DNA of 24,000 nt, taken from contig JAHZHK010000002.1 in assembly GCA_019420325.1 (NCBI GenBank), forward strand, positions 10,102-34,101. The letters are read 5' to 3'. The notes under the pieces were generated by a model, which saw nothing but the letters and a program-made list of their open reading frames with translations, was not told the DNA's origin and searched no databases. Below are positions 1,893-23,717 of the stretch, piece by piece. The DNA comes from Coriobacteriaceae bacterium. Lineage in GTDB: Bacteria > Actinomycetota > Coriobacteriia > Coriobacteriales > UMGS124. Made by a program: the position numbers and the translations under genes. Position 1 is the first letter of the stretch, and the number at the start of each line of letters is the position of its first letter.

Positions 1893-1979
1893 CGTATAAA
1901 CTGGAGTATTGTTTGTACGATGCGTTTTTATATGCAACTGTAGGCTGGGCACACAACGTTTGAGAGGGGCACGGAACAG

Positions 1980-2957
1980 ATGAATCCCATCCAGAAGAGC
2001 ATGAAGGTCTTCTCCGGCACGTCGAATAGGGCGTTCGCCGAGTCGGTGGCCGCAAAGCTCGGCACGACGCTGGGAGATCTGCAGATCGAGAAGTTCGCCA
2101 ACGGCGAGATTTACACGCGTTTTGCTGAGAGCGTGCGCGGCTGCGACGTCTTCTTCATCCAGTCGGTTTCTGGTCCTCACCTTAACGACATGCTGATGGA
2201 GGTCCTGATCGCGGCCGACGCTGCCAAGCGTGCCTCCGCTCGTACCTTCACCGCCGTGCTTACCCACTACGCCTACGCTCGTCAGGACCGCAAGGCCCAG
2301 CCCCGCGAGCCCATCACGGCCCGCCTGGTCGCCGACCTCTACGAGGCCGCGGGCGTCAACCGCGTCATCACGGTCGACCTGCACCAGGGCCAGATCCAGG
2401 GTTACTTCGACGTCCCGGTGAACCACCTCACCGCCATGCCCATCTTCGCCGAGTACTACACGGCCAAGGGCTTCGACATGAACAACACCGTCGTCGTTTC
2501 GCCCGACGTGGGTCGCGCCAAGGCCTCCAAGCGCCTGGCCGACATGCTCGGCTGCGACCTGGCCGTTGCCCACAAGAACCGCGCCGCCCACAACGAGGCC
2601 GAGGTCATGGGCATCCTGGGCAACATCCAGGGCAAGACCTGCATCATCAACGACGACATGATCGACACCGCCGGCACCCTGTGCGGCGCGGTGCGCGAGC
2701 TCAAGAACCTCGGCGCCGGCGACATCTACGTGGGTGCCACGCACGGCCTGTTCTCCGGCCCCGCCTACGAGCGCCTGCTCGACCCGACCCTGCCCATCGT
2801 CGAGGTCGCTGTCACCGACGCTGTGCCCGTGCCCGTGGAGAAGCGCGGTGACCGCATCAAGGTCCTGTCGCTTGCCGACGAGTTCGCCAAGGCCATCCAG
2901 AACGTGTACGACGAGACGTCCGTCTCCAAGATGCTGGGTGTCAACCCCGAGTTCTAA
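1980..2957 (+). CDS. prs: ribose-phosphate pyrophosphokinase (PRPP synthetase)
   Basis: Full-length PRPP synthetase pattern: MKVFSGTSNRAFAESVA, YARQDRK, VTVDLH, and the PRPP-binding loop IINDDMIDTAGT. Start could be ATG 1980 or Met8 at 2001. Confidence 0.95.
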   Translation: MNPIQKSMKVFSGTSNRAFAESVAAKLGTTLGDLQIEKFANGEIYTRFAESVRGCDVFFIQSVSGPHLNDMLMEVLIAADAAKRASARTFTAVLTHYAYARQDRKAQPREPITARLVADLYEAAGVNRVITVDLHQGQIQGYFDVPVNHLTAMPIFAEYYTAKGFDMNNTVVVSPDVGRAKASKRLADMLGCDLAVAHKNRAAHNEAEVMGILGNIQGKTCIINDDMIDTAGTLCGAVRELKNLGAGDIYVGATHGLFSGPAYERLLDPTLPIVEVAVTDAVPVPVEKRGDRIKVLSLADEFAKAIQNVYDETSVSKMLGVNPEF

Positions 2958-2966
2958 TCCGATTGG

Positions 2967-3005
2967 GGCAGGCCAGGGCATGTGCCGTGGCCTGCCTTTT
3001 GTTTT
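2967..3005 (+). terminator. rho-independent terminator after prs
   Basis: Perfect 9-bp stem GGCAGGCCA (2967-2975) / TGGCCTGCC (2988-2996), followed by TTTTGTTTT. Confidence 0.7.
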
Positions 3006-3074
3006 CTGCAAGCAAGGTACAGTGCGAGTGGTCGAGCCAGGGTTGCCTGGCTCGATTTGTATAGGAGGGGTCAG

Positions 3075-3671
3075 ATGGCGGGCAAAACCGTCAAAGACGT
3101 GCCGGTTGGCATTGTGTGCGGCCTGGGAAACCCTGGCAGTGAGTATGAGCGCACGAGGCACAACGCCGGTTTCTTGGCAATCGACGTGTTGGCCAATGAG
3201 CTGGGCGCACGCTACTGGAAAAACAAGCCGGGTGCGGCCGTGTGCGAGGTGAGCGTTGCGGGCCGCAAGGTCGTGCTTGTGAAGCCCCAGTCGTACATGA
3301 ACGTCTCGGGCGGTCCTCTCAAGAAGATTGCCGAGGAGTACCGCGTGCCCGCCGCCGGCATCCTGGTGATTCACGACGAGCTTGAGCTGCCTGCGGGTGC
3401 GGTGGCGCTCAAGATGGGCGGTGGCCACGCCGGCCACAACGGCCTGCGCTCCATCGGTGAGAAGCTGGGCACCCCCGACTACCCGCGCGTACGCTGCGGC
3501 ATTGGTCGCCCGCCGGGAAAGATGGCCCCGGCCGACTACGTCCTCCAGCAGTTGCGCGGCCGCGACTGGGAGGAGTTCGAGGTTACGGCGGCCGATGCGG
3601 CTCTTGCGGCCCGTTTCGCCCTGGAGCAGGGTGTGGCTGCGGCACTTGCCAAGTACCCGGCTAAGAAGTAG
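3075..3671 (+). CDS. pth: peptidyl-tRNA hydrolase
   Basis: Pth signature GLGNPGSEYERTRHNAGF, then HDELELP and GHNGLRSI. Start placed at ATG 3075 (AGGAGG SD at 3063-3068) rather than the track start 2982, which overlaps the prs terminator. Confidence 0.9.
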   Translation: MAGKTVKDVPVGIVCGLGNPGSEYERTRHNAGFLAIDVLANELGARYWKNKPGAAVCEVSVAGRKVVLVKPQSYMNVSGGPLKKIAEEYRVPAAGILVIHDELELPAGAVALKMGGGHAGHNGLRSIGEKLGTPDYPRVRCGIGRPPGKMAPADYVLQQLRGRDWEEFEVTAADAALAARFALEQGVAAALAKYPAKK

Positions 3672-3758
3672 GGGGCTTGTGAGGTGCTGGGCGCCTTGGT
3701 GTGAGTTTTTCAATCAGCGGTTTTCTGTGGGTGACAGACGGAGCGCGGGGGTCGCATC

Positions 3759-4676
3759 ATGGCGCATATAGGAGAGTCGAACAATGCTGACGGGGAGGGA
3801 ACCGTGCATCGAATTCTAAAGAAGGAGCTTCTGGCGCAGGGCACGTGGCTCATGCGCGTGGAAGCGCCGGCCGTTGCGGCCAAGGCGCAGGCTGGTCAGT
3901 TCTTCCTGGTACGCGCACGTGAGGGAGCCGAGCGTGTGCCGTTTACGTTCTGTGATTGGAACGCCCAAGAGGGCTGGATCGAGTTTGTGTTCCTCGTGGT
4001 GGGATACACGACCGAGCTGCTTACCACCTTCGAGGAGGGCCAGGAGCTGCTCGACGTGACGGGTCCTTTGGGCAACCCCTCCAACATGGAGGGCGTCGCC
4101 GGGCAGCGTTGGGCTGTGGCCGGCGGCGGCGTGGGCCTGGCGGCGGCGTACCCCGTGGCACGCGCGCTGGCACAGGCCGGCGCCCAGGTGAGCGCCATCG
4201 TGGCTGCTCGTAGCCGTGACTTGCTTGTGCTTGAGGACAAGTTTCGCGCAATCGAGGGTGCCGATATCATCGTTGTGACCGACGACGGCTCCTACGGCGA
4301 GAAGGGTTTTGCCACCGGTCCCTTGGAGCGCCTGGCCAAGGCCGGCGAGATCGACCATGCCTTTGTGGTGGGCCCCGTTCCCATGATGGGCGCCTGCGTG
4401 AAAGCTGTGTCGGCCTACGACGTGCCTGTGACCGTGTCACTCAACCCGGTCATGCTCGACGGTACAGGCATGTGCGGCGGTTGCCGCGTGGTGGTGGACG
4501 GCCAGGTTCGCTTTGCCTGCATCGACGGCGTCGACTTCGACGGCGCCAAGGTTGACTGGGCCGACCTGCGCAGCCGCCTGCGCACGTTTGGCGCACAGGA
4601 GAAGGAATCGCTCGAGCTTGCCCATGCCTGCCGCATGCAGGCGGCGGCCGATGCCCTGGAAGGAGCCGCACGATGA
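3759..4676 (+). CDS. nfnA: NfnA / PyrK-like FAD- and [2Fe-2S]-binding oxidoreductase subunit (sulfide dehydrogenase beta / ferredoxin-NADP reductase small partner)
   Basis: Ferredoxin-reductase-type FAD/NAD module with a C-terminal Cys cluster GMCGGCRV...FACIDG. Its stop overlaps the next start (ATGA at 4673-4676). An alternative GTG start at 3804 has a better SD (GGAGG 3794-3798) and would give the family-typical N-terminus VHRILKKE. Confidence 0.8.
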   Translation: MAHIGESNNADGEGTVHRILKKELLAQGTWLMRVEAPAVAAKAQAGQFFLVRAREGAERVPFTFCDWNAQEGWIEFVFLVVGYTTELLTTFEEGQELLDVTGPLGNPSNMEGVAGQRWAVAGGGVGLAAAYPVARALAQAGAQVSAIVAARSRDLLVLEDKFRAIEGADIIVVTDDGSYGEKGFATGPLERLAKAGEIDHAFVVGPVPMMGACVKAVSAYDVPVTVSLNPVMLDGTGMCGGCRVVVDGQVRFACIDGVDFDGAKVDWADLRSRLRTFGAQEKESLELAHACRMQAAADALEGAAR

Positions 4677-6133
4677 GCCAGCTGCAAGAGGGCGCCGCTG
4701 TGCCCGAGCGTTACAAGCCCAATGCGAAGGCGCCCCGCACGCCTGCACGCGAGGTCGCCCCGCAGGAGCGTGTGCAGGGCTTTATGCCCGTTGACCTGGG
4801 ATATACCGATGACGACGCCGTGCTCGAGGCGAACCGCTGCCTGGATTGCGCCCGCCCTTTGTGCGTGCAGGGCTGTCCTGTGGGCGTCGATATCCCCCAT
4901 TTCATCGAGGCCATCCGTGCCCGCGACTGGGAGCGCGGCCTGGACATCGTGCGCCGCGACAACCTGCTGCCGAGCGTGTGTGGCCGCGTGTGCCCGCAGG
5001 AGACGCAGTGCGAAGGTGCCTGCGTGCTCGCCAAGCGCGGCAACCCCATCGCCATCGGCCAGCTCGAGCGCTTCCTGGGCGACAAGGCCGACGAGCTTGC
5101 GGGCGGGGCTGCGGCCGATTCTGGCGCGTCTGAGGCCAACGCTGCGGGCGTTGCCCCGCGTCGCGTCGCGGTTGTGGGCAGCGGTCCTGCCGGCATTACC
5201 TGCGCCTTTGAGCTTGCGCGCGCTGGCGTAGAGGTCACCATCTTCGACTCGCTGTTCCGTTTGGGCGGCGTGCTTGTGTACGGCATCCCGGAGTTCCGCC
5301 TTCCCAAGGCCGTCGTTGCCCGCGAGCTTGAGGCCCTGGAGGCGCTCGGTGTGCGCGTGGAGACCAACATGGTCGCCGGCCGTACCTTCACAGTCGACGA
5401 GCTGCTCGGCGAGCGCGGCTTCGACGCCGTGTTCATCGGCGTGGGCGCGGGCCTTCCCAAGATGCTTGGTGTGCCTGGCGAGAACGCATGCGGCGTGATG
5501 TGCGCCAACGAGTACCTCACGCGCGTGAACCTCATGCGTGCCTATGACTTCCCGCAGGTAGATACTCCTGTGCGTCCTGGCAAGAACGTCGTCGTCTTCG
5601 GCGGCGGCAACGTCGCCATGGACGCGGCCCGCACGGCGCTTCGTCTGGGAGCCGAGACGGTCACGCTGTGCTATCGCCGTACCGAGGCCGAGATGCCCGC
5701 TCGCAGGGCCGAGATCGAGCATGCCAAGGCTGAGGGCGTGCGTCTCATGGAGCTCGTGGGTCCGCTTGGCTTCGAGGCTGACGAAGCCGGCAACGTGTGC
5801 GCCGCCCGCCTGCAGCGCATGGAGCTTGGCGAGCCTGACGAGGGTGGCCGTCGCCGCCCCGTGGCGCTTACGGGGCAGGACGCCATCGCGCAGATCCCCT
5901 GCGACCTGGCCATCACGGCCATCGGCACGAACGCCTGCCCGCTCGTGGGGGCCATGGCTCCCAGTGTCGCGCTCAACCGCTGGGGCTACATCGAGGCCGA
6001 CGAGGACGGGCGCACCAGCCAGCCGGGCGTGTGGGCCGGCGGCGACATCGTGACCGGCGCGGCTACCGTCATCCTTGCGATGGGTGCCGGAAAGCGCAGT
6101 GCGCACAGCATTCTCGAGTCCTTTGAGGCCTAG
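4673..6133 (+). CDS. nfnB: NfnB / GltD-family NADPH-dependent oxidoreductase (glutamate synthase small-chain-like, 2x[4Fe-4S] + FAD)
   Basis: N-terminal Fe-S motifs CLDCARPLCVQGCP and CGRVCPQETQCEGAC. Dinucleotide folds VAVVGSGPAG and VVFGGGNVAMD. C-terminal VWAGGD. Translationally coupled to the upstream subunit. Confidence 0.85.
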   Translation: MSQLQEGAAVPERYKPNAKAPRTPAREVAPQERVQGFMPVDLGYTDDDAVLEANRCLDCARPLCVQGCPVGVDIPHFIEAIRARDWERGLDIVRRDNLLPSVCGRVCPQETQCEGACVLAKRGNPIAIGQLERFLGDKADELAGGAAADSGASEANAAGVAPRRVAVVGSGPAGITCAFELARAGVEVTIFDSLFRLGGVLVYGIPEFRLPKAVVARELEALEALGVRVETNMVAGRTFTVDELLGERGFDAVFIGVGAGLPKMLGVPGENACGVMCANEYLTRVNLMRAYDFPQVDTPVRPGKNVVVFGGGNVAMDAARTALRLGAETVTLCYRRTEAEMPARRAEIEHAKAEGVRLMELVGPLGFEADEAGNVCAARLQRMELGEPDEGGRRRPVALTGQDAIAQIPCDLAITAIGTNACPLVGAMAPSVALNRWGYIEADEDGRTSQPGVWAGGDIVTGAATVILAMGAGKRSAHSILESFEA

Positions 6134-6164
6134 TTTCTAAAACACAAAACACCTGGTAGAGTGC

Positions 6165-6230
6165 GGTCGCGTCGCGGTTAAGCTTTTTTGGGAGCAGCCC
6201 AGACAAGCTTTGCGGACGCGACCTTTTTGT
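6165..6230 (+). terminator. probable terminator hairpin after nfnB
   Basis: GGTCGCGTC (6165-6173) pairs with GACGCGACC (6215-6223). There is an internal AAGCTT/AAGCTT helix, followed by TTTTTGT. The loop is long, hence moderate confidence. Confidence 0.55.
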
Positions 6231-6320
6231 CAAAAGCCGAGTCGCATCGCCGACGCAATCCGGCCCCGGCAGTCGTAGAATGGTATCCGACTGTCCGCAA
6301 TGTAAGGGGAGGTTTTAGCT

Positions 6321-7724
6321 GTGAACCGTACAACCGTCGCCAGCATCTTCGCTAACTCCGAAAGCCTGGGGGGAACCACGCTGACCGTGGCGGGATGGGC
6401 GCGCTCCATCCGTGACTCCAAGGCCGTGGGATTCGTCGCCCTCAACGACGGCAGCTGCTTCAACAACCTTCAGGTCGTCCTGAGCCGCGACGTCCTGTCC
6501 AACTACGACGAGATTGTCGCGCAGAACGTGGGCACCGCCTTCGTTGTGACCGGTGAGCTTGTGCTGACGCCCGGCGCCCAGCAGCCCTTCGAGCTCAAGG
6601 CGCTCTCCATCGAGGTCGAGGGCCCCTCTGCTCCCGACTACCCGCTGCAGAAGAAGCGCCACACCGTCGAGTTTCTGCGCACCATCCAGCATCTGCGCCC
6701 CCGCACCAACCTGTTCAGCGCCGTGTTCCGCGTGCGCTCCGTGGCCGCCTTCGCTATCCACTCCTTCTTCCAGGAGCGCGGCTTCGTCTATGTGAACACG
6801 CCCATCATCACCGCCAGCGACTGCGAGGGTGCCGGCGAGATGTTCCATGTGACCACGATCGACCCGGCCAACCCGCCGCTCGACGACCACGGCAACGTCG
6901 ACTACAGCCAGGACTTCTTCGGCAAGGCCGCCAATCTCACGGTGTCGGGCCAGCTCCAGGCCGAGAACTTCGCCATGGCGTTCGGCGACGTCTACACTTT
7001 TGGCCCGACGTTCCGCGCCGAGAACTCCAACACGCAGCGCCATGCCGCCGAGTTCTGGATGGTGGAGCCCGAGATTGCTTTCGCCGACCTCGAGGACGAC
7101 ATGAACCTCGCCGAGGACATGCTCAAGTACGTCATCCGCTACGTCATGGATCACTGCCCCGACGAGCTCAACTTCTTCAACTCCTTCGTCGACAAGGGCC
7201 TCATCGAGCGCCTCGAGCATGTGGCTTCCAGCGATTTCGGTCGCATCAGCTACACCGACGCCGTCAAGGTCCTCGAAGAGGCTGTTGCCGGCGGCCATGA
7301 GTTCGAGTACCCGGTGTACTGGGGCTGCGACCTGGCCACCGAGCATGAGCGCTTCCTCACCGAGCAGCACTTCAAGCGTCCCGTCTTCGTGACCGACTAT
7401 CCCGCCGAGATCAAGGCGTTCTACATGCGCATGAACGACGACGGCAAGACCGTCGCGGCCACCGACTGCCTGGTGCCCGGCATCGGCGAGATCATCGGCG
7501 GCTCGCAGCGTGAGGAGCGCCTCGAGCTGCTTGAGAAGCGCATCACCGACCTGGGCATGAACCCCGAGCAGTACAAGTACTACCTCGACCTGCGCCGTTA
7601 CGGCAGCTGCAAGCACGCGGGCTTCGGCCTGGGCTTCGAGCGCCTCGTGATGTACCTCACGGGCGTGTCGAACATCCGCGACGTGCTGCCGCACCCCCGC
7701 ACCGTGGGCAACGCGGATTTCTAA
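6321..7724 (+). CDS. asnS: asparagine--tRNA ligase
   Basis: Class IIb aaRS with the AsnRS-typical [21 protein letters not shown] block, an N-terminal OB-fold region, and C-terminal [12 protein letters not shown] start with GGGGAGG SD. Confidence 0.93.
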
Positions 7725-11964: not shown

Positions 11965-11994
11965 GGGTTTCCGCCTGCAATACGCGTGTAAGAA

Positions 11995-12047
11995 GAAACC
12001 CCGCAGGTTTCAAGCCCTGAAGGAGGGCGAGGAACCTGCGGGGTTTC
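11995..12047. repeat. perfect 15-bp inverted repeat between convergent genes (probable bidirectional terminator hairpin)
   Basis: GAAACCCCGCAGGTT (11995-12009) and AACCTGCGGGGTTTC (12033-12047) with a 23-nt loop. U-tracts are weak on both strands. Confidence 0.6.
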
Positions 12048-12062
12048 GTGTGCTGAGGATGC

Positions 12063-12368
12063 TCATACGAGCCGAGCGTAGTCCTGCGTTTGGTGAAAGA
12101 TGTGGGCGATAACGATTTTGTCGTTGGTGACTTTGTACAAGGCTACGTAACGCTTGATGTGGATGGGTCGATATCCGAGTGCGGCGAGTTCGGGTAGATG
12201 CGACAGCGGATGCATGAGGGGCATCTCACATACCAGGGTTATCTGGTGGTCGAACTCGTTCATGAATTCGTTTGCGGCCGCAGGGCTAAGCAGGGTTGAG
12301 GCCAAATATGAGACTATGGACTCGTATTCGCGCTGCGCCTCGCGGGTGATGACTGCCTTATGGGTCAT
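12063..12368 (-). CDS. type II toxin, RelE/ParE superfamily
   Basis: 101 aa from MTHKAVITREAQREYESIVSYL... to ...YVALYKVTNDKIVIAHIFHQTQDY, the ParE/RelE-typical C-terminus. The start overlaps the antitoxin stop by 11 nt. Confidence 0.8.
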   Translation of the reverse strand: MTHKAVITREAQREYESIVSYLASTLLSPAAANEFMNEFDHQITLVCEMPLMHPLSHLPELAALGYRPIHIKRYVALYKVTNDKIVIAHIFHQTQDYARLV

Positions 12369-12624
12369 AGCGCTGACGGATCGAGGCAGAGAAGGCCGAG
12401 AAGTCCGTGTAATCACCCGAGGCAATTTCGGTTTCGGCAAGCAACATGCGAGAGAGAAGTTTTGCCTTAGCGACTTCCTCGCGCTGCGCCTCGTATTCTT
12501 CGTTGCTCAGGCAATGCATCGCGCTGTATCCATTGCGCGTCACTGTGACATCGCGCTCCCGTTCAACGAGAGCGGCAAACGCCGCGGTATCTTTCATATC
12601 TCGAACCGGTACACAAACAGGCAT
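12358..12624 (-). CDS. type II antitoxin, Phd/YefM-like
   Basis: 88 aa. The N-terminal VPVRDMKDTAAFAALVERERDVTVTRNGYSAMHCLSNEEYEA fits the Phd/YefM fold pattern. Strong SD AAGGAGG lies 6 nt upstream. The gene sits upstream of and overlaps the toxin. Confidence 0.7.
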   Translation of the reverse strand: MPVCVPVRDMKDTAAFAALVERERDVTVTRNGYSAMHCLSNEEYEAQREEVAKAKLLSRMLLAETEIASGDYTDFSAFSASIRQRYDP

Positions 12625-12654
12625 CAGGACCCTCCTTCACCTAACTGTGGCCAA

Positions 12655-12660
12655 ATTGTA
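12655..12660 (-). promoter_or_regulatory. candidate -10 element (TACAAT) for the toxin-antitoxin pair
   Basis: The minus strand reads GGTACAAT in the 42-nt gap between the LuxR stop and the antitoxin start. The -35 is poor (TTGGTG inside the LuxR 3' end). Confidence 0.3.
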
Positions 12661-12666
12661 CCGCGT

Positions 12667-14145
12667 CTATTTCCTCTCCACCAAATCAAGAAGCTCCTGC
12701 TTGGAGTGGACATCGAGCTTAGTGTAGATGTGCTTGACGTGGCCACGCACGGTGTTTTCGGAAATGAGGAACGTCTCGGCGATGCGGGTCTTGCTGTGGC
12801 CGCGCACGAGCAGCTCAAGCACTTCCTCCTCGCGTGCGGTGAGGCTTCCCTTGCGGGCGAGCTGGTGGCAGCGGGTGCGCAGGTTGTCGGCCGAGGAGCT
12901 GGCGGTGGGTGCGGCGGCCTCGCGCTTCTCCAGGTCGCGCTGGGTGGCAAGCGCGCGCATCTCGGGGGAGTCGTCCTCGGCCTGGTTCAGTTCGGAGAAG
13001 ATGAGCCGGTTGCCAAGGGAGCGGTCGTCGAGCAGTACAAGAGCCACGACCACGAGCGCCCAAGTGGCAATCGAGGTGATGAGCGGCTCGATGGGACTCT
13101 CAACCATGAGCAGGCCCGCCGCGCTTCCTGCGGCAAAGGGCAAGGCGTAGGCGAGCCAGCCTGCCGCGTACACGGCCAATGCCGGGTAGGAGCTGTGCCT
13201 GGCCACATCGGCCACAGCCATGAACAGGAAGAACACCACGAGCAGGGCATGGGCGGTGCGCACGAGCGCAAAGAGCACGGCATGGGCGCCGGTGCCTGCG
13301 AGGAACGGCTCGAACACAAGCACGGTGACCATGAGGATGAGAATGAGTCGCCAGGTGCGGCCAAAATCGATGCCGCGGCCTGCGACGCTGACCCACCAGA
13401 TGAAGACAAAGGCGAGCAGTATCTCGGTGCCGTGGTTTACAAGCACGGAAAGCACGTAGGGGTTGGGTGTGGACTCGAGGATGGCCGTGCGGATGATGCC
13501 GATGGTGAAGCTGAATGCCACCACGCTTACCAATGCACGCGACAGGGACCCCACGGTGCGGGCGTTGTAGTACTGCTCGGGCTTGCTTGCGGGTGGCAGG
13601 TTGCGCGCCGCATGGCGCATGCAGGCGAATGTGGCGAAGGGCAGGCACACGAACACGGGGGCCGCCACGGCGCCGGGCAAAAAGTCGATGACCGTTTTGC
13701 AGGCAGAGCCCAGCGCCATCGTGCAGAAGAGCAGGGGAACCGAAAAGGCGAGGTCGAGTTTGGCATACACCTGGATCCAGCGGCCGTAGGCCCAGGCAAC
13801 GCCCACCCCTCCCAAGGTTGCGCCCACTGCGGTGGCCACGGCGGGCGCAGTGGGCAGCTCGACCGATAGTGCCACGCCGCCCAACGCCATGAGGGTCGCC
13901 GACACAAGGTCGCGTGCGAGCATTCTGCGGTCCCCGGGCAGGTCGAAACGCTCACCCGCTTTGCCTGCACGCCAGGCACCGATGCCTATCGCCACGAGCG
14001 TCACGCTCATGGCCGAGTACAGCACGGCCGTGACGGAGATGCCGCCGCTCTCAAGGAAGCGGTGGGTGGAGCAGTAGATCCACATGTGTACAAACGCCAG
14101 GCCCAAAAGGGACGGGCGAAGGTTTTTTAGGAAGTTTGCAAGCAT
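12667..14145 (-). CDS. polytopic-membrane LuxR/GerE-family transcriptional regulator (regulator 1)
   Basis: About 10-12 hydrophobic helices by eye over the first ~400 aa. A C-terminal HTH follows: LTAREEEVLELLVRGHSKTRIAETFLISENTVRGHVKHIYTKLDVHSKQELLDL. SD GGAGG lies 4 nt upstream of the ATG. Confidence 0.85.
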   Translation of the reverse strand: MLANFLKNLRPSLLGLAFVHMWIYCSTHRFLESGGISVTAVLYSAMSVTLVAIGIGAWRAGKAGERFDLPGDRRMLARDLVSATLMALGGVALSVELPTAPAVATAVGATLGGVGVAWAYGRWIQVYAKLDLAFSVPLLFCTMALGSACKTVIDFLPGAVAAPVFVCLPFATFACMRHAARNLPPASKPEQYYNARTVGSLSRALVSVVAFSFTIGIIRTAILESTPNPYVLSVLVNHGTEILLAFVFIWWVSVAGRGIDFGRTWRLILILMVTVLVFEPFLAGTGAHAVLFALVRTAHALLVVFFLFMAVADVARHSSYPALAVYAAGWLAYALPFAAGSAAGLLMVESPIEPLITSIATWALVVVALVLLDDRSLGNRLIFSELNQAEDDSPEMRALATQRDLEKREAAAPTASSSADNLRTRCHQLARKGSLTAREEEVLELLVRGHSKTRIAETFLISENTVRGHVKHIYTKLDVHSKQELLDLVERK

Positions 14146-14232
14146 GGTTCCTCCAGTGAGGCGGCAGTGCGCAAAGCGGTGAGCGAACAGCCCCTTTGGG
14201 GTTGTCTCGGAGTGTCGCGGGGCTTATTCGCG

Positions 14233-14247
14233 CCTGTACATAGTACT
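14233..14247. promoter_or_regulatory. imperfect palindrome CTGTAC-ATA-GTACTG in the divergent intergenic region (candidate operator)
   Basis: 5/6 symmetric half-sites with a 3-nt centre. It lies 88 nt from the regulator start and 226 nt upstream of the flavoprotein start. Confidence 0.25.
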
Positions 14248-14404
14248 GCACGTCTCGCGCCATTGACGCGAAAAACGATGGGTCACTCCACTCCAATCTG
14301 GGGTGTATACAAGCACTTTTACCTGCACAAACAAAGAAAGCCGCAAAGTGGGGGGCGAATGGGTTGCGCTGAGCGCGCTAGTGTTCGAGCTGTTCAACGC
14401 AAGG

Positions 14405-14459
14405 CACACGCCAAGCGAGGACGCATCAGCCACCGCTACAAAGCAAGGCATGACAGAAA
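14405..14459 (+). promoter_or_regulatory. two copies of the GCAAGGCA motif in the flavoprotein-1 leader
   Basis: AACGCAAGGCACACGC (14405-14420) and CAAAGCAAGGCA (14448-14459). The same motif recurs upstream of flavoprotein 2 and of LuxR regulator 2. Confidence 0.35.
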
Positions 14460-14472
14460 AGGGGTAATCGCT

Positions 14473-16212
14473 ATGCAAAGCAACGCAATGTCCCGCCGCT
14501 CGTTCGTTCAGACCGCAGGCGCCGCAGCCGCCGGCCTCGCCGCCGCAGCCGCCGTGCTGCCGGGTGCCAACCCGCAGACGGCCCACGCTGCCGTCGCCGT
14601 TCCCGAGACGTGGGACTATGAGTGCGACGTCGCAGTCGTGGGCACCGGTACGGTTCTGACCGGTGCCGGCAAGGCTGCCGCCGAGGGCAACCGCGTCATC
14701 ATCATTGAGGCCGAAGGATTTATTGGTGGTACCACCTCCATCTCCAACGGTCAGACTTGGATGCCCCTCAACTCTACCGCCATGGCGCAGGGCCTGGACA
14801 ACTACGACGACGCCCTGGCCTACATCACCGCTACCGCCGCTGGCAAGTCTACGCCCGAGATTCTCGAGGCCTTTCTGAAGTACGGCCCCGAGGCCATCGA
14901 CTTCCTGGCCGAAACAGCCGACCTCACTTGGGAGATCAGCCCCCGCGTCGACTATCATATCGACGTCTTCCCCGGCGCCAAGGACCAGACCCGCACCATC
15001 GCCCCTGTTGGCAAGCAGTCAACTGAGGCCGGCCAGATGACGGGCGCCTTCGGCACCACCTCTTCGGGCTCCTATGTCACCGACCCGCTGTGCGACGGCG
15101 TCGTGAACAAGTACGGCGGCGAGCTGTTGCTCAACACCCGCGCCATGCACCTCATCACCCGTGTCAACGACGAGGGTGTGACCGAGGTCTGTGGCGTGCA
15201 GGCCCAGGCCGAGGACGGTTCCATGATCAACATCAAGGCCACCAAGGGCGTCATCCTGGGCGCGGGCGGCTTTGGCTGGAACGACGACATGAAGAAGCGC
15301 TACATGGAGCTGCCGGCCAACCGCACCATGGAAGTCTCCACCTGCGTGGGCGACGGCATCCTCATGGGTCAGGCCGTGGGCGCCGACGTCACGCTCATGC
15401 AGTACGCCTGGGGCCAGGTCGTCTGCGTCAACCCCGAGGACATGCCCTACCACGAGTGGTGCGAGAAGCCCACTGAGATCAACCACTTCGGCCTGGGCAC
15501 CTTCTATGGCCTTATGTGCAAGCCGGGTTCCTGCGTGCTCAACAAGTTCGGCCGCCGCTTCATGGACGAGGCCGTTGACTACGACTCCCTCTACCATGGC
15601 TTCTGGGGCCGCGACCTAGGCGCCAACCAGACCGAGGAGGGAGGCACTTACGGCACGAGCTGGACGAACTGCCCGGCCTTCTACATCTGCGACTCCACTG
15701 TTGCCGATGCCGAGAACTCCGTTATGCGCGACTCCGACGGCAACATCGTGAGCTGGGTCGCCTATCAGGCCGACACCATCGAGGAGCTCCTCGACCAGAT
15801 TCCCTGGCGTGACGACTACGCCCGCCAGAAGGCCTCCAAGACCATCGAGGAGTACAACGAGAACTGCAGGAACGACATCGATCCCGAGTTCCACCGCGGC
15901 GAGACCACGTGGGATCAGGGCGGCACGAGCCGTCCCGAGAAGTCGCTGGCACCCATCGAGGTCGGCCCCTTCTACGGCATCATCTGCGAGCCCTATCCCA
16001 TGTGCACCAAGGGTGGCCTGCGCGTGAACGAGAACGCTGAGGTCCTCTCCGTCACCGGTGAGGTCATCCCCCGTCTGTACGCATCCGGCAACAACTCCGG
16101 CATCGGCGGCCCGGGCCTCTTCTACAACGGCGCCGGCGGAACCCTGGGCCCTGGCTTCACGTTTGGCTACATCGCCGGCATGAACGCCGCCCAGCTGACT
16201 CCCTGGGAGTAG
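14473..16212 (+). CDS. Tat-exported FAD-dependent oxidoreductase, fumarate-reductase/KstD superfamily (KstD-like, Cys-rich)
   Basis: Twin-arginine signal MQSNAMSRRSFVQTAGAAAAGLAAAAAVLPGANPQTAHA/A. FAD fold DVAVVGTGTVLTGAGKAAAEGNRVIIIEAEGFIGG. C-terminal block YASGNNSGIGGPGLFYNGAGGTLGPGFTFGYIAG. Start set at ATG 14473; the track start 14167 adds a non-coding-looking 102-aa leader. Confidence 0.85.
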   Translation: MQSNAMSRRSFVQTAGAAAAGLAAAAAVLPGANPQTAHAAVAVPETWDYECDVAVVGTGTVLTGAGKAAAEGNRVIIIEAEGFIGGTTSISNGQTWMPLNSTAMAQGLDNYDDALAYITATAAGKSTPEILEAFLKYGPEAIDFLAETADLTWEISPRVDYHIDVFPGAKDQTRTIAPVGKQSTEAGQMTGAFGTTSSGSYVTDPLCDGVVNKYGGELLLNTRAMHLITRVNDEGVTEVCGVQAQAEDGSMINIKATKGVILGAGGFGWNDDMKKRYMELPANRTMEVSTCVGDGILMGQAVGADVTLMQYAWGQVVCVNPEDMPYHEWCEKPTEINHFGLGTFYGLMCKPGSCVLNKFGRRFMDEAVDYDSLYHGFWGRDLGANQTEEGGTYGTSWTNCPAFYICDSTVADAENSVMRDSDGNIVSWVAYQADTIEELLDQIPWRDDYARQKASKTIEEYNENCRNDIDPEFHRGETTWDQGGTSRPEKSLAPIEVGPFYGIICEPYPMCTKGGLRVNENAEVLSVTGEVIPRLYASGNNSGIGGPGLFYNGAGGTLGPGFTFGYIAGMNAAQLTPWE

Positions 16213-16236
16213 GACAGGCTGTAAACCCCCTTTTTT

Positions 16237-16270
16237 GGGCGCTTCTCCTTCGGGAGGGGCGCCTTTTCTC
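16237..16270 (+). terminator. rho-independent terminator after flavoprotein 1
   Basis: 11-bp stem GGCGCTTCTCC / GGAGGGGCGCC (two G-U pairs), TTCG loop, then TTTTCTC. Confidence 0.75.
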
Positions 16271-19194: not shown

Positions 19195-19250
19195 GTGCGT
19201 CCTTTCAAAGTCGTCGTTGCCGGCAGACATGATACCAACGCTCGACACAA

Positions 19251-19283
19251 AGAGCCCCGCCTTCACAGGGAAGACGGGGCTCT
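19251..19283 (-). terminator. possible terminator after flavoprotein 2
   Basis: 9-bp stem AGAGCCCCG / CGGGGCTCT with a 15-nt loop. On the minus strand it is followed only by TTGTGT, a weak U-tract. Confidence 0.4.
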
Positions 19284-19339: not shown

Positions 19340-21151
19340 TTACGCCAGGGCGTTGGCAGCGGCGGACTGGCCGGCGATGCGGCCGAAGACGATGATGTCG
19401 GTGAAGGAGTTGCCGCCCAGACGGTTGCCGCCCTGGACGCCACCCGTGCACTCGCCGGCAGCGAAGAGGTTGGCGATGGGGGTGCCGTCCTCCTTGGTCA
19501 CCTGAGCGTCGGTGTTGATGGCCAAGCCACCCATGGTGTAGTGAATCGTGGGGATGCGCTTGGAGGCGTAGAAGGGGCCGTCCTCGACCTTGTCGCCCAG
19601 GAGCTTCTTGCCGGGGTCGACCATGGTGTCCTCGCCGGCGTCGATGACCGCGTTGTAGCCGTCGATGGTCTCCTCGAGGGTGGCGGGGTCGAGCTCGATC
19701 TGCTCGGCCAGGTCGGCGATGGTGTCGGCCTGGAAGCTGTGGCCGGTGGCCACGAGGTCGGCGATCTCGTCGAGACGGTCGTCGGTGATGTCGGTGGAGT
19801 CGACGATGAGCCACATCTCGTCGTTGGTCTGCTCAAGGATGGCGTTGGCGATCTCGTCGCGGCGGCCGTCCTCGGCGGTGAAGCGCTTGGCCTCGTCGTT
19901 CACCATGACGTAGTCCTCAACGCCCAGCCAGTTGCCCACGAAGGTGGCCACGCCGCCGTTCTGGGGGTCGCCGAGCGGGTGGATCTGCACGAGCTCCATG
20001 TTCTTGAGGCCGGCACCGATCTCCTGAGCCATGGGGATGGCGTCGCCGGTGGCGCTCACGTTGCAGGAGGAGGGCATGGTCTCGGTCACGCGGGTGTCGT
20101 ACTGCATGGCGAGCTGGGGGTTGCGGGCATAGCCGCCGGTAGCCATGACAACGGACTTGGCGGTGACGGTAACAGGGTTGCCGGAGGAGACGCGCGAGCC
20201 CGTGACGCCCGTGACGTTGCCGTCGGCGTCGGTGGAGATGGCCTCAACCTTGGCGTCGGTGTAGTACTTCACGCCCAGGCGAGTGGCGCAGTCCATGAGG
20301 CAGCTCACGTAGTAGGCGCCGCCCTGCTGGCCCATCTTCTGAACCTTGATGGAGTGGCCGCGCTGCCACTTGCCACCGATTGCCGTGAAGACCTCGTCGT
20401 TGAAGACCAGGCCGTGGGCCTCCATCCAGTGAATGCCGTCGAGGGCGTTGTCGGCCAGGATATGCACGAGCTCGGGGTCGGCCTTCTCGTCGCCGCCCTC
20501 GTAGGTGTCCTCAAAGAACTTGTCGGCGCTGTCCTCGATGCCCATGGGGTCCTGGCGCTCGGGGTCGGGGGAGTTGAAGGTACCCTCGCCGCAGTTGGTG
20601 TTGCCGCCGTAGATGTCCATCTTGTCGAGCAGGATGACCTTGGCGCCAGCCTCGGCAGCGGAGACGGCAGCGGCCATGCCAGCGCCGCCCGTACCCACGA
20701 TCACGACGTCGCACTCCTCCTCGATGGCAGGCGCGGGCTCAAGGCCGCTCTCGGCGTCCTCGAGGGCGTCAACGTCGGCACCGGCCTGCTCGTAGGCGTC
20801 GGCCAGGGCAGACTTAAAGCCGAAGGAAGTGAGGGTGGCGCCGGTCACGGAGTCGAGGTTGAGCGTCTGGGACTCAAGGGCGCGCTGCGTCAGGATCTCG
20901 ATGGCAGCGTCGCCGATGTTCTTGGACTCGTCGGAGCGGGCGACGATGGCGCAGAGCTTGCCGTCCTTGAACGTGGCCTCAAGATCGATGTCGCCGTTGC
21001 GGCCGGTGCCGGTGGCGGCGTAGGTGCCGTCGACGATGGAGGAAGCGGCCTGATCGGCCTTGGCGAGCTGGACGCCGCCCATGGCTGCGACGGCGGCGAG
21101 GCCGGCTGCGCCGGCGACGAACTGACGACGGGTGGAAGTAGCGATAAACAT
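19340..21151 (-). CDS. Tat-exported flavin reductase: FMN-binding domain + FAD-dependent fumarate/urocanate-reductase-like domain
   Basis: Tat signal [36 protein letters not shown]_bind-type domain with flavinylation motif [11 protein letters not shown]. Canonical [30 protein letters not shown]. Catalytic-type blocks [27 protein letters not shown] and [10 protein letters not shown]. Start at ATG 21151 (AAAGGGG SD). Confidence 0.88.
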
Positions 21152-21227
21152 GTGGACCCCTTTCGACACTGACTTTGACGTGCATTGCCTGATGGATGTC
21201 GCTTGGCTCGGCGCCTGTGCTGCGGTC

Positions 21228-21288
21228 GCCTTGCACCCCCTGCCTTGCGTTCGGGGTGCGTGTGCCTCAAGCGCTGCGCCTTGCTTTG
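21228..21288 (-). promoter_or_regulatory. three copies of the GCAAGGC(A/G) motif in the flavoprotein-2 leader
   Basis: The minus strand reads CAAAGCAAGGCG (21288-21277), AGGCACACGC (21267-21258), AACGCAAGGCA (21251-21241) and GTGCAAGGCG (GCAAGGC = 21234-21228). Confidence 0.35.
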
Positions 21289-21424
21289 CTGACTCGTACA
21301 ATGCGCCGAAAACGCCGGTGCCGAAATTGCACGAACGGTGTGGTTGTTGGTTTTGCCTCTCGCACACCTTTGGTGTGAGTCTCATCATGCCTGGTAGATT
21401 GATGTGTCAAGCCAAAAGGTGGCG

Positions 21425-21469
21425 AAAAAGAAATCCGCCGCTCCCTCGTGGTGCGAAGGGGCGGCGGAT
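21425..21469 (-). terminator. rho-independent terminator after LuxR regulator 2
   Basis: The minus strand reads ATCCGCCGC ... GCGGCGGAT (perfect 9 bp, with an inner CCCT/AGGG helix) followed by TTCTTTTT, about 70 nt after the regulator stop. Confidence 0.75.
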
Positions 21470-21538
21470 GCGTGCAGGGGGTCGCGCAGGGTTCGAAACG
21501 GGTCGCAAGACCCCGATATGTGTCGTATTTTCGAGCGC

Positions 21539-22969
21539 CTATTTTTGACTTTCGGCCATCTGATCCATGAGCAGATCGAGCAACTCTTGCTTGGAATGGA
21601 CGCCCACTTTCGTGTACAGGTGGCGGGCGTGGCTGCGCACCGTGTTCTCCGAGATGCATAGGCTCTCTGCGATGTAGCCCTTCGAGCGGCCCTTGCAGAT
21701 GAGTTCCATGACCTCAAGCTCGCGGTCGGTGAGGCCGGAGTCGTGCCCGAGGCGCTTGCATGCGTCGCCGAGCGCGTCGAAAAGCGCCGGGGGCACGGGA
21801 GGCTTCTCGAGGTCGGCAAAGACGCGTCCCGCTGAGAAATCGCGCTCGTCGAGCATGAAGATGCTGACCATGGCAAGCAGGTACACGATGACGGAGACGA
21901 GCGAGGTCATGGCAACGCTCGTGGTGAAGAGACCGCCGAGCGCGCGTCCCACGGGGAAGGGCAGGCAGTACGCCGTCCAGCCCATGGCGAACACGGCCAA
22001 GGGGTTGATGGTGCTGCGGTGAGCCACGTCGGCGAGGAACGCCCACAGCAGCATGACCACGAGCGTCTGCCCCACAGCCACGAAGACGAGTGCCCAGCCC
22101 GAGAAGGCACGGCCGAAAAGGGGCAGTGCGAGCACGCCCGTCGCCGTGAACACGAGCGTGGCGCGCCATAGGTCGGAGAAGTGCAGCGAGCGGCGCTTGA
22201 CCAGGACAACCCAGATGATGCCGGCGGCGGTGGCGACCTCGAGCAGGTGGTGGACGAGTGAGAGTGCGGCCTTGGGGGCGGGGTCGGCTTCCACATGAAT
22301 GCCCTGCATGATGCCGATGACCAGACCGTATGCGGCGATGCCGAAGAGGATTTTGATGTAGGGGCGCTGCCTGCGTGGGTCGACCAGCACCTCGACCGGC
22401 TTGGCCGGGGGCTGCGCCGCCATGGCGCGCCCGCACAGGATGAACGACGCAAACGGAAGAACCGAGCATACTATGGCGGCCCACGCGTCGGGTATGAGGT
22501 CAATGGGGATTTTGACGAGGCTGCCTATGAGCATTGCCCCGAAGATGCAGGCAAGCGCGTCGCGCGTCTCAAGCGCCGCGTAGAAGAACGACCATTGCAT
22601 GTACGTCCAGCCCATGCCGATGCCGCAGAATACTGCCGCTGCCTGGAGTATCTGTTCGGCGGGAAGTCCTTGGGGCAACGGAAGGACGAGCGCGAGGGTT
22701 CCCAGTGCCATGAGCGTGGCGAGGGGCCAGTTGATCCACGAGAGGGTCTTTGAGGTGGGCTTTGCCAGAAGGGCCCCTATCGTGAGGCCAAGCGTGAAGA
22801 GCGTGAGCGAGATGTAGATGGTGACGGTGAGCGTCATCTGGGGGTGCGCCGCGCTGGCGAGGTGGCAGGCGTCCCAGATCCACACGTGGCCGCACAGGAT
22901 GCCGAAGTAGCACAGGCGCGGGTGCTGCAGTGTGTGGGGAAGAGCTTCGTGGTCTGGAATGAGCGACAT
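21539..22969 (-). CDS. polytopic-membrane LuxR/GerE-family transcriptional regulator (regulator 2, paralogue of 12667-14145)
   Basis: About 10-12 hydrophobic helices followed by LTDRELEVMELICKGRSKGYIAESLCISENTVRSHARHLYTKVGVHSKQELLDL. It shares membrane-domain blocks with regulator 1 (ADVA-H/R-S, GW-x-AY-x-LPF). SD GAGGG lies 6 nt upstream. Confidence 0.85.
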   Translation of the reverse strand: MSLIPDHEALPHTLQHPRLCYFGILCGHVWIWDACHLASAAHPQMTLTVTIYISLTLFTLGLTIGALLAKPTSKTLSWINWPLATLMALGTLALVLPLPQGLPAEQILQAAAVFCGIGMGWTYMQWSFFYAALETRDALACIFGAMLIGSLVKIPIDLIPDAWAAIVCSVLPFASFILCGRAMAAQPPAKPVEVLVDPRRQRPYIKILFGIAAYGLVIGIMQGIHVEADPAPKAALSLVHHLLEVATAAGIIWVVLVKRRSLHFSDLWRATLVFTATGVLALPLFGRAFSGWALVFVAVGQTLVVMLLWAFLADVAHRSTINPLAVFAMGWTAYCLPFPVGRALGGLFTTSVAMTSLVSVIVYLLAMVSIFMLDERDFSAGRVFADLEKPPVPPALFDALGDACKRLGHDSGLTDRELEVMELICKGRSKGYIAESLCISENTVRSHARHLYTKVGVHSKQELLDLLMDQMAESQK

Positions 22970-23209
22970 ATTGTGCCCTCACTTTGGGTTAGCGGTGCAT
23001 GGATGCGGGCAACATGCCATTCTACAACGCTTTTGTTCCATGCTGACGAGAGGTTACGCGGGGCCGAGGCCATGTGTTTGATTGTTTGGGGGCCGCAGTG
23101 TTATCAATCGGTGGCAAAGTCACATTCTCATGCTCTGCGCGCCGCGACGGTCGTACACTGTGCCTTGCAGGGGATGCAAGATTGGAACCTTACGAAAGGA
23201 TGTACGCCC

Positions 23210-23464
23210 ATGTGCACCAACGGCATCAACACCACTCAGTTTGAGCAGCTCATCGACCAGATCGATGACTACGTGGCCCTTCAGGTGCGCCACACCCACA
23301 AGCTTGCCCATGCCGCCGACAACGCCGGCTACGAGAACTGCCACCTGAAGCTGCATGCCGCCTCCGACATGCTCGCTGAGGTACGCAACCTGCTCGACGA
23401 GGCCAAGTTTGCGCTGGAGGATGACGTCAACTCCGTTTCTGCCGTCGACGTTCACGCTGTGTAA
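23210..23464 (+). CDS. hypothetical small protein (84 aa, probably helical)
   Basis: GC3-rich frame MCTNGINTTQFEQLIDQIDDYVALQVRHTHKLAHAADNAGYENCHLKLHAASDMLAEVRNLLDEAKFALEDD.... ATG 23210 has AAAGGA 9 nt upstream; ATG 23174 is an alternative. The gene is divergent from LuxR regulator 2. Confidence 0.5.
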   Translation: MCTNGINTTQFEQLIDQIDDYVALQVRHTHKLAHAADNAGYENCHLKLHAASDMLAEVRNLLDEAKFALEDDVNSVSAVDVHAV

Positions 23465-23717
23465 GTTGCGGAACCTGATGCGCTGCGTTCCGCGGAGTCT
23501 CACGTACGTCCAGTACGCATCGACTCCGCGCGTCTTGCGCATCAGAACCCGCGTTTTAGAGGGTTGCGGAGCCTGATGCGCTGCGTTCTCCACGGGACTC
23601 GTCGCAAAGGGCGCTCCGTGCACAGGAGCTCATGTACTCCAGTACACATCGCACCTGTGCGCCTTGCGGACGAGAACCCGCGCTTTAGAGGGTTGCGGAA
23701 CCTGATGCGCTGCGGTT
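23465..23717 (+). repeat. three copies of a 26-nt direct repeat bracketing two long related hairpins (extragenic structured repeat)
   Basis: GTTGCGGA(A/G)CCTGATGCGCTGCG(T/G)T occurs at 23465, 23563 and 23692. AGAACCCGCG(T/C)TTTAGAGG occurs at 23544 and 23673. Unit 1 stems: CTGATGCGC/GCGCATCAG and CGCGGAGTC/GACTCCGCG. Unit 2 stems: CTCGTCGCAAAGGGCGC/GCGCCTTGCGGACGAG and GTGCACAGG/CCTGTGCGC. Confidence 0.8.

Follow-up and report, generated by a model that had tools for sequence, protein, structure and literature searches.

According to Little et al. (bioRxiv 10.1101/2022.12.26.521950), the secreted reductases of the PF00890 and molybdopterin types number tens to hundreds in Eggerthellaceae. In Eggerthella lenta, 64 reductase genes directly neighbour genes of transmembrane regulators, and the substrates of the reductases act as their inducers (bioRxiv 10.1101/2022.12.26.521950). 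The same species has 83 transmembrane LuxR regulators, 74 with 10-12 helices and 50 located beside flavin enzymes (Dong et al. 2022, PMC9734109). For three of the regulators with 10-12 transmembrane (TM) helices, deletion and complementation demonstrated that they activate the neighbouring reductase gene in response to the substrate (PMC9734109). Enzymes that join an FMN_bind domain to PF00890 serve respiration as extracytosolic reductases, and the genes of their electron-transport partners lie elsewhere (PMC8238504). Tens of such sensor and reductase cassettes in gut Eggerthellaceae decide which dietary and host metabolites get respired and transformed. Here we describe a two-gene locus of this kind, an enzyme gene (19340-21151) and a regulator gene (21539-22969), in a stretch of 24,000 nucleotides (nt) from contig JAHZHK010000002.1 of a Coriobacteriaceae bacterium. 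This 24-kb stretch is referred to as the window.

Both genes are read in the same direction on the minus strand, with the regulator upstream and the enzyme downstream, and all features of the locus given below are on this strand. The region is probably a self-contained sensor and reductase cassette of an uncultured gut Coriobacteriales bacterium, and this is the best explanation of the locus as a whole. It is an ordinary example of a kind that has been described many times in Eggerthellaceae. Like the E. lenta modules, it comes from gut Coriobacteriia and has a regulator with 12 hydrophobic segments and a C-terminal GerE domain next to a PF00890 reductase with a predicted export signal, and the reductase content varies between strains (here in module 1, a second cassette in the window, see below). 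Unlike in the E. lenta modules, the host is an uncultured member of the Coriobacteriales and the regulator is co-directional with the enzyme, with a terminator between them. All features that the first-pass annotation had listed were recovered at the places it gave, and its interpretation was borne out wherever it could be checked. Conceptually the cassette adds little that is new, but in practice it offers, among other things, a concrete candidate operator and promoter that can be put to the test for one regulator of the 12-TM LuxR family.

The nearest genomes are human-gut Coriobacteriales metagenome-assembled genomes (MAGs; UMGS124, MGYG-HGUT-00585 and Hadza MAGs), which are 95-97% identical in DNA over 12 kb and 98-99% identical in the enzyme. 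Further enzyme orthologues show 74-92% identity, and the closest named homologues, from Raoultibacter, Adlercreutzia, Eggerthella sinensis and Cryptobacterium curtum, about 60-66%. The regulator gene adjoins the enzyme gene in every orthologous locus with sufficient flank. The pairing is retained also in two loci (L013 and L010) in which mobile DNA has been inserted between both genes, and in both of them the entire promoter block remains with the enzyme gene despite the insertion.

The enzyme gene encodes a 603-amino-acid (aa) protein, predicted to be exported, with an FMN_bind and an FAD_binding_2 domain, as seen from profile matches, an AlphaFold model and Foldseek. Its open frame spans from 21388 to 19340, and the true start is the ATG at 21151, which gives the 603 aa; homologues are 605-631 aa long. 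A ribosome-binding site, AAAGGGG (21157-21163), is positioned six nt 5' of this ATG, and GAAAGGGG at the site is kept in close orthologues. The upstream extension is not conserved and has an in-frame stop 9-20 codons before the ATG at 21151 in three orthologous loci (L005, L006 and L013). The long form from 21388 is best read as a start-codon mis-call, because the extension (21152-21388) covers the promoter/operator block and stop codons interrupt it in orthologues. Gene callers use the ATG at 21388, as in the cluster representative P0001 (681 aa, 514 member sequences).

Residues 1-32 (21056-21151) form a putative twin-arginine translocation (Tat) signal peptide, STRRQFV ... AKA/D. The first-pass annotation, made from the letters of the window, had proposed this signal, and we found STRRQF at 21136-21119 and a TIGR01409 match of 18.5 bits against a cut-off of 16.7. 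The Pfam TAT_signal profile PF10518 gave 18.6 bits, under its cut-off of 22.7. The RRxF motif was present in 13 of 13 orthologues, the segment has low confidence in the structural model, and AKA/D is, by eye, compatible with an AxA signal-peptidase site. A match to the FMN_bind profile above its threshold had been set beforehand as a test of the proposal, and PF04205 scored 34.1 bits (cut-off 22) over aa 50-121 (20789-21004). The domain carries the flavinylation motif D100-S-V-T-G-A-T106 (20834-20854) within the aa 99-109 stretch, and the codon of the candidate Thr106 is at 20834-20836, exactly where the earlier reading had placed it. It fits the consensus Dxx(s/t)gA(T/S) that Bertsova et al. 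(bioRxiv 10.1101/2023.03.04.531086) quote for recognition by ApbE. In our set, D-x-x-[ST]-G-A-[TS] was found in all 99 homologues (66 from Coriobacteriia and 33 from Firmicutes/Paenibacillus). The enzyme would fold with FAD (flavin adenine dinucleotide) in the cytoplasm, leave via Tat and have its signal cut after Ala32. An ApbE-type transferase, encoded elsewhere, would then put FMN (flavin mononucleotide) on Thr106 outside the membrane.

The FAD_binding_2 catalytic domain (aa 148-582, 19406-20710) was recognised with PF00890 and by mapping onto the Shewanella fumarate reductase Fcc3. GTGGAG at aa 153 provides the GxGxxG motif that had been noted before, and PF00890 scored 257 bits (cut-off 20.4). 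The flavocytochrome c subfamily profile TIGR01813 scored 374.7 bits against a cut-off of 285.45. The AlphaFold model, built from 58 sequences, has a mean predicted local distance difference test score (pLDDT) of 91 and a predicted template modelling score (pTM) of 0.88, and only residues 1-34, which hold the signal peptide, have low confidence. When the model was searched with Foldseek, the Fcc3 succinate complex 1D4D came first at 2.6 Å root-mean-square deviation (rmsd), and UrdA, the urocanate reductase of S. oneidensis (6T85), was close behind with a TM-score of 0.91. The combination of Tat signal, FMN_bind and FAD domain is that of extracytosolic respiratory flavin reductases, as claimed at first reading (PMC8238504; bioRxiv 10.1101/2022.12.26.521950).

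To place the active-site residues, we aligned the enzyme residue by residue with S. oneidensis Fcc3 (1D4C), counting in PDB numbering, and an independent alignment agreed. Fcc3 His365 corresponds to His391, Met375 to Val401, Thr377 to Thr403, Glu378 to Phe404, Arg381 to Asn407, Arg402 to Arg431, His504 to His537 and Arg545 to Arg577. The His/Arg/His/Arg tetrad that had been picked out by eye is thus confirmed, since QIHP at 389, GRRDE at 429, HYTMGG at 537 and GNRLGGN at 575 align with Fcc3 His365, Arg402, His504 and Arg545. The codons are at 19979-19981 (His391), 19943-19945 (Thr403), 19859-19861 (Arg431), 19541-19543 (His537) and 19421-19423 (Arg577). All five residues were invariant or nearly so across about 66 Coriobacteriia homologues. 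Thr403 is positioned 12 residues past the first histidine and is invariant in the Coriobacteriia orthologues, and in Firmicutes relatives of 42% identity the position is occupied by Glu, Gly or Gln. Its Fcc3 equivalent Thr377 (E. coli FrdA Thr244) makes the contact to the distal carboxylate of fumarate.

In the comparison with Fcc3 (1D4C, 1D4D and 1QJD), the FAD and clamp domains share 40.7% identity and superpose with an rmsd of 2.4-2.8 Å. The counterparts of His365, Thr377, Arg402, His504 and Arg545 are kept, and our enzyme, as predicted from its sequence, would share with Fcc3 a soluble extracytoplasmic respiratory nature. Unlike Fcc3, it has a domain that could be flavinylated in place of the N-terminal tetrahaem domain, Phe and Asn instead of Glu378 and Arg381, a 3-residue insertion past the active-site loop and a Tat signal. 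Listeria monocytogenes FrdA (Light et al. 2019, cited in PMC8238504) is a Gram-positive, extracytosolic enzyme with the same FMN_bind and PF00890 combination, and the genes of its partners (ApbE/FmnB and electron-transfer proteins) are at another place in the genome. The Listeria protein is exported by the general secretory route with signal peptidase II (Sec/SPII), whereas the enzyme here has a Tat signal.

These residues suggest that the enzyme retains what dicarboxylate binding needs. A dicarboxylate such as fumarate is favoured because all fumarate-contacting residues of Fcc3 are retained and the determinants for urocanate are missing. Our leading guess for the substrate, only just short of probable, is fumarate or a close C4/C5 dicarboxylate, e.g. 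itaconate or mesaconate. An ordinary fumarate reductase, which if expressed constitutively had been named beforehand as a refuting case, may yet apply, and the residue evidence in fact points to a fumarate-like substrate. Electrons would pass from a membrane donor to the covalent FMN, then to FAD, and would end at an alpha,beta-unsaturated carboxylate, whose C=C bond they would reduce. The carboxylate beside the double bond would be held by His537 and Arg577 and the second one by His391 and Thr403, and Arg431 would give the proton.

Several observations speak against this picture of the enzyme. The proton relay of Fcc3, Glu378 and Arg381, is lost, and the residues in its place, Phe404 and Asn407, are both invariant in the orthologues. 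The NCBIfam equivalog NF005064 ('flavocytochrome c'), which we take to represent Listeria-type FrdA, scored 319.6 bits, below its cut-off of 542. Judged from its residues, the active site is not that of a canonical fumarate reductase, and the enzyme cannot be called one because the Glu/Arg relay is missing and the NF005064 cut-off is not reached. Neither ApbE nor a membrane electron-transfer protein or quinol dehydrogenase is encoded in the 24-kb window; such an absence of ApbE and membrane donor beside the cassette is the usual situation for cassettes of this type. The comparison with the characterised reductases of E. lenta (UrdA, IrdA and CrdA-D) was made at the level of published descriptions.

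The substrate could instead be a monocarboxylate enoate, such as cinnamate, acrylate, a crotonate-type or another dietary compound, in which case His391 and Thr403 would be merely inherited and no second carboxylate would be contacted. In Little et al., the Arg-containing 'clade 1' holds the cinnamate reductase CirD together with UrdA, and five residues have already misled a substrate prediction once, when the predicted acrylate reductase of V. ruber turned out to be a cinnamate reductase. The missing relay would also agree with a monocarboxylate, and so would the hinge segment, which is conserved even in distant relatives and marks a separate subfamily with a signature of its own. However, about 65 Coriobacteriia orthologues all carry His391 and Thr403, and the loss of Thr403 in the 42%-identical Firmicutes relatives suggests selection on this residue in the Coriobacteriia clade. 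We consider a monocarboxylate substrate rather unlikely, and continue with a fumarate-like dicarboxylate as the preferred substrate.

The regulator, LuxR2, has 476 aa (21539-22969) and was identified as a membrane-spanning LuxR-type protein by its GerE match and hydropathy. Its aa 19-371 (21857-22915) contain 12 hydrophobic peaks by hydropathy count, which predicts a membrane region of 12 helices that is the presumed sensor. The GerE/LuxR helix-turn-helix domain covers aa 412-465 (21575-21736; PF00196, 57 bits). With its C-terminal GerE domain, 12 predicted helices and adjoining flavin reductase gene, LuxR2 is readily placed among the 10-12-TM LuxR regulators. The statement that it is a membrane LuxR paralogue of the module-1 regulator also held, as the two proteins are 34% identical over the full length. 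Across 13 orthologous regulators the helix-turn-helix core GRSKGYIAExLCISENTVRSHARHLY shows hardly any change, and the membrane part is only 44-64% identical in orthologues with the unchanged DNA-binding core. The recognition helix of the paralogue LuxR1 differs (TVRGHVKHIY).

The regulator gene is followed by an intrinsic terminator (21424-21469), which was found by folding and repeat finding. The strong terminator at this position had been called at first reading, and we found 16-nt arms (21469-21454 and 21448-21433) that are 88% complementary with one bulge, a 5-nt loop and then UUUCUUUUU. Owing to the bulge, a simple consensus scan missed it. The hairpin (21469-21433) begins about 70 nt past the regulator stop codon, and terminator-like hairpins of other sequence are located in the same place in L005 and L006. 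A second terminator, with a 14-bp stem followed by UUUGUGU, is positioned 3' of the enzyme gene (19244-19283; promoter/terminator scan and RNA folding). Since strong terminators stand both upstream (21469-21424) and downstream (19283-19244), the enzyme gene can be regarded as a monocistronic unit.

The first-pass annotation had argued that the enzyme needs a promoter of its own. The regulator terminator, together with a conserved promoter/operator block within the 273 nt from the terminator to the ATG, bears this out. We aligned the sequence from the regulator stop to the enzyme ATG of the window with ten orthologous loci, in which the enzyme is 74-99% and the regulator 44-97% identical. Among seven divergent sequences only three stretches reached a conservation of 0.85. 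Two of them are palindromes, a candidate distal operator CACACC-AAA-GGTGTG (site 1, 21363-21377) and a candidate proximal operator CACACC-GTT-CGTGCA (site 2, 21328-21342, centred at about -44), both present in 13 of 13 loci. The third is G-C-A-T-n-G-T, invariant in the 13 loci, which contains CATTGT (21298-21303), a candidate -10 hexamer. The same palindrome underlies both sites, in two variants.

The spacing of these promoter footprints is also conserved. From the centre of site 2 to CATnGT we counted exactly 32 nt in all 11 aligned loci. The distance between the centres of site 1 and site 2 is 35 or 36 nt in eight loci and 46 nt in three. The difference of 10-11 nt is one helical turn. CATnGT would be the -10 element, and the two candidate operator sites would each bind a regulator dimer in a class-II-like arrangement. 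According to this model, LuxR2 is an activator of the LuxR type that senses through its N-terminal 12-helix membrane domain, and its own transcript would stop at the strong terminator. The enzyme gene would be transcribed alone from a promoter at about 21298-21377. LuxR2 dimers would occupy the two palindromes (CACACC-N3-SGTG), the proximal one about 44 nt upstream of the start implied by CATnGT and the distal one 35 or 46 nt further upstream on the same helix face, and the enzyme would thereby be inducible.

Not all observations favour this operator model. CATnGT matches TATAAT poorly, and a sigma-70 scan of the region found no promoter. Two orthologues of about 60% identity, one on an E. sinensis-like contig and one in C. 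curtum, have an adjoining regulator that is divergently transcribed, and the palindromes there are related to ours but have other spacing. The regulators of these two loci are 39% (E. sinensis-like contig) and 35% (C. curtum) identical to LuxR2, with the helices TVRSHSKNLY and TVRSHSKHLY, respectively. Since the loci of about 60% identity differ in orientation and spacing, the operator model has support only within the clade of at least 74% identity. Neither the DNA upstream of luxR2 nor the intergenic region of module 1 contains a copy of the core CACC-N3-SGTG. In the window it has 11 matches against 3.4 expected, but as a short motif with non-promoter matches in coding DNA it is uninformative on the regulon. 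A further block, CTTGACA-N8-TACCAG (21391-21411), was found in 11 of 13 orthologous promoters. TTGAC-related elements abut the palindrome on the opposite strand in L008, L012 and L016.

We also considered that the palindromes are not operators of LuxR2 but hairpins of a leader RNA or sites of another or a global regulator, so that the enzyme is expressed constitutively or by read-through. Dong et al. (PMC9734109), the paper that defines the family, reports no operator or binding site for a 12-TM LuxR. The upstream CTTGACA could be a -35 element, which would put the palindromes inside the transcript, and site 1 is able to form a 6-bp hairpin. No conserved -10 element, however, follows CTTGACA-N8-TACCAG in the orthologous promoters, and read-through is stopped by the strong terminator. 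The shift of the inter-site spacing by one turn of the DNA helix, and the recognition helix of LuxR2 conserved in step with the sites, argue for DNA sites of this regulator. The energy from RNAalifold was just -6 kcal/mol and the covariation term +0.4, and three loci have A.C mismatches. With such a weak energy and no covariation, an RNA structure was rejected in favour of DNA sites for the promoter block. Taken as a whole, a non-operator role of the palindromes is unlikely, and we prefer the two LuxR2 operator sites.

Automated annotation of several homologues would make the enzyme a urocanate reductase (UrdA) that forms imidazole propionate. JGI labels P0009 (75% identical) and P0017 (68%) 'urocanate reductase', and UniRef gives the same label to the homologues of Eggerthella sinensis and Adlercreutzia (about 62%). 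The domain architecture, an FMN domain and an FAD domain, equals that of S. oneidensis UrdA (6T85-6T88), as the Foldseek TM-score to 6T85 also reflects. UrdA Arg411, His520 and Arg560 are conserved, and the Glu of the Fcc3 relay is missing in both enzymes. In UrdA, Tyr373 is the discriminator, and Asp388 is essential and tolerates only Asn or Gln (PMC7921117). Tyr373 is replaced by His391 here and in 66 of 66 close homologues. The position of Asp388 is occupied by the invariant Gly406, and the neighbouring Asn407 aligns with Ser389. In addition, Phe391 is replaced by Trp408 and Arg390 has no counterpart. The FAD domain is nearer to Fcc3 than to UrdA (40.7% against 36.5% identity, where Fcc3 and UrdA themselves share 41%), and UrdA is listed as a Sec/SPII lipoprotein, whereas the enzyme here has a Tat signal with an AxA site.

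From these residues a urocanate reductase is very improbable, and the labels on the homologues look wrong. The labels of P0009, P0017, P0146 and P0157 in JGI and UniRef are probably a systematic mis-annotation. Under the published residue test for UrdA, the homologues that carry this label do not qualify, which matters for annotation-based counts of imidazole-propionate producers. Hardly to be credited either is an oxidative or non-respiratory role (dehydrogenase, detoxification or redox balancing without energy conservation), for although the PF00890 superfamily contains dehydrogenases (KstD, succinate dehydrogenase and cyclohexanone dehydrogenase), these relatives lack signal peptide and FMN_bind and are far more distant, and secreted flavinylated members are respiratory reductases in the cited surveys.

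Two proposals would together go beyond the known modules. The palindromes at about -44 and -79/-90 with CATnGT may be the first operator/promoter architecture for a 12-TM LuxR, and the Coriobacteriia clade with the hinge segment may be a Tat-exported, flavinylated fumarate/dicarboxylate reductase without the Glu/Arg relay that has been mislabelled as UrdA. This is a tentative view, to which we give somewhat less than an even chance. If true, the operator would be a direct handle for reporter-based de-orphaning of such cassettes, and the UrdA mislabelling would inflate metagenomic estimates of imidazole-propionate producers.

The window also contains module 1, with a 12-TM LuxR gene (12667-14145) and a gene for a Tat-exported PF00890 flavoprotein (14473-16212). 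The first-pass annotation had contrasted it with our cassette as having the same regulator family and different chemistry. The regulator family was correct, but the contrast between the enzymes was imprecise since the module-1 enzyme is also a Tat-exported PF00890 flavoprotein. It has neither the FMN_bind domain nor any of the four residues of the His/Arg tetrad. The more accurate wording is that both enzymes belong to the same superfamily and differ in active site and electron entry. In this the module-1 enzyme resembles clades 2-4, which lack the arginine, in the scheme of Little et al. (bioRxiv 10.1101/2022.12.26.521950).

Module 1 is a presence/absence polymorphism among near-identical genomes. 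The region 11965-16258 is present in L001 and L007 and absent from L002 and L003, i.e. from two of four such genomes. In L002, 98 nt (13119-13216) are found in place of 3.36 kb, and of the module-1 enzyme gene only the final ~185 nt are left. In L003, a 1.6-kb segment (12893-14502) with a Fic-domain open reading frame (ORF) replaces module 1 and the adjacent toxin-antitoxin pair. This pair, a ParE toxin and a Phd-like antitoxin (12063-12624, minus strand), adjoins module 1 between fusA and the module-1 regulator.

The DNA inserted between regulator and enzyme in two of the orthologous loci is mobile or defence DNA. In L013 (2077-4471), a BsuBI/PstI-type restriction endonuclease and methylase are inserted between the regulator terminator and the enzyme promoter block. 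In L010 (about 1025-7600), an insert of ~6.9 kb with a Schlafen/AlbA_2 ATPase, a HipA-like protein and an insertion sequence with an rve integrase occupies the same spot. Directly past the regulator terminator there seems to be a hotspot for insertions. Around the locus, near-identical strains have thus gained and lost neighbouring cassettes and mobile defence genes.

The remaining genes of the window are housekeeping genes (glmU, prs, pth, asnS, rsmD, fusA, an alanine symporter, rdgB and dtd). An NfnAB/sulfide-dehydrogenase-like pair on the plus strand (3759-6133) consists of a DHODB iron-sulfur/NAD-binding subunit and a Fer4_20/Pyr_redox_2 subunit; it is cytoplasmic and has no evident connection to the reductase cassettes. 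An Rfam scan of the window returned a single tRNA only, so that the intergenic region has no match to a riboswitch or leader family. Upstream of the regulator, a small ORF on the plus strand (23142-23464) has only a weak, sub-threshold match to DUF7438. Its 3' part shows 88-92% DNA identity in L005 and L006, exceeding that of the regulator (~60% protein identity). Next to it, at 23465-23717, GTTGCGGAACCTGATGCGCTGCG occurs three times, twice within 77-nt repeats that are 129 nt apart, with an inverted partner at 23537-23552. These copies are an intergenic repeat resembling repetitive extragenic palindromes or miniature inverted-repeat transposable elements (REP/MITE-like).

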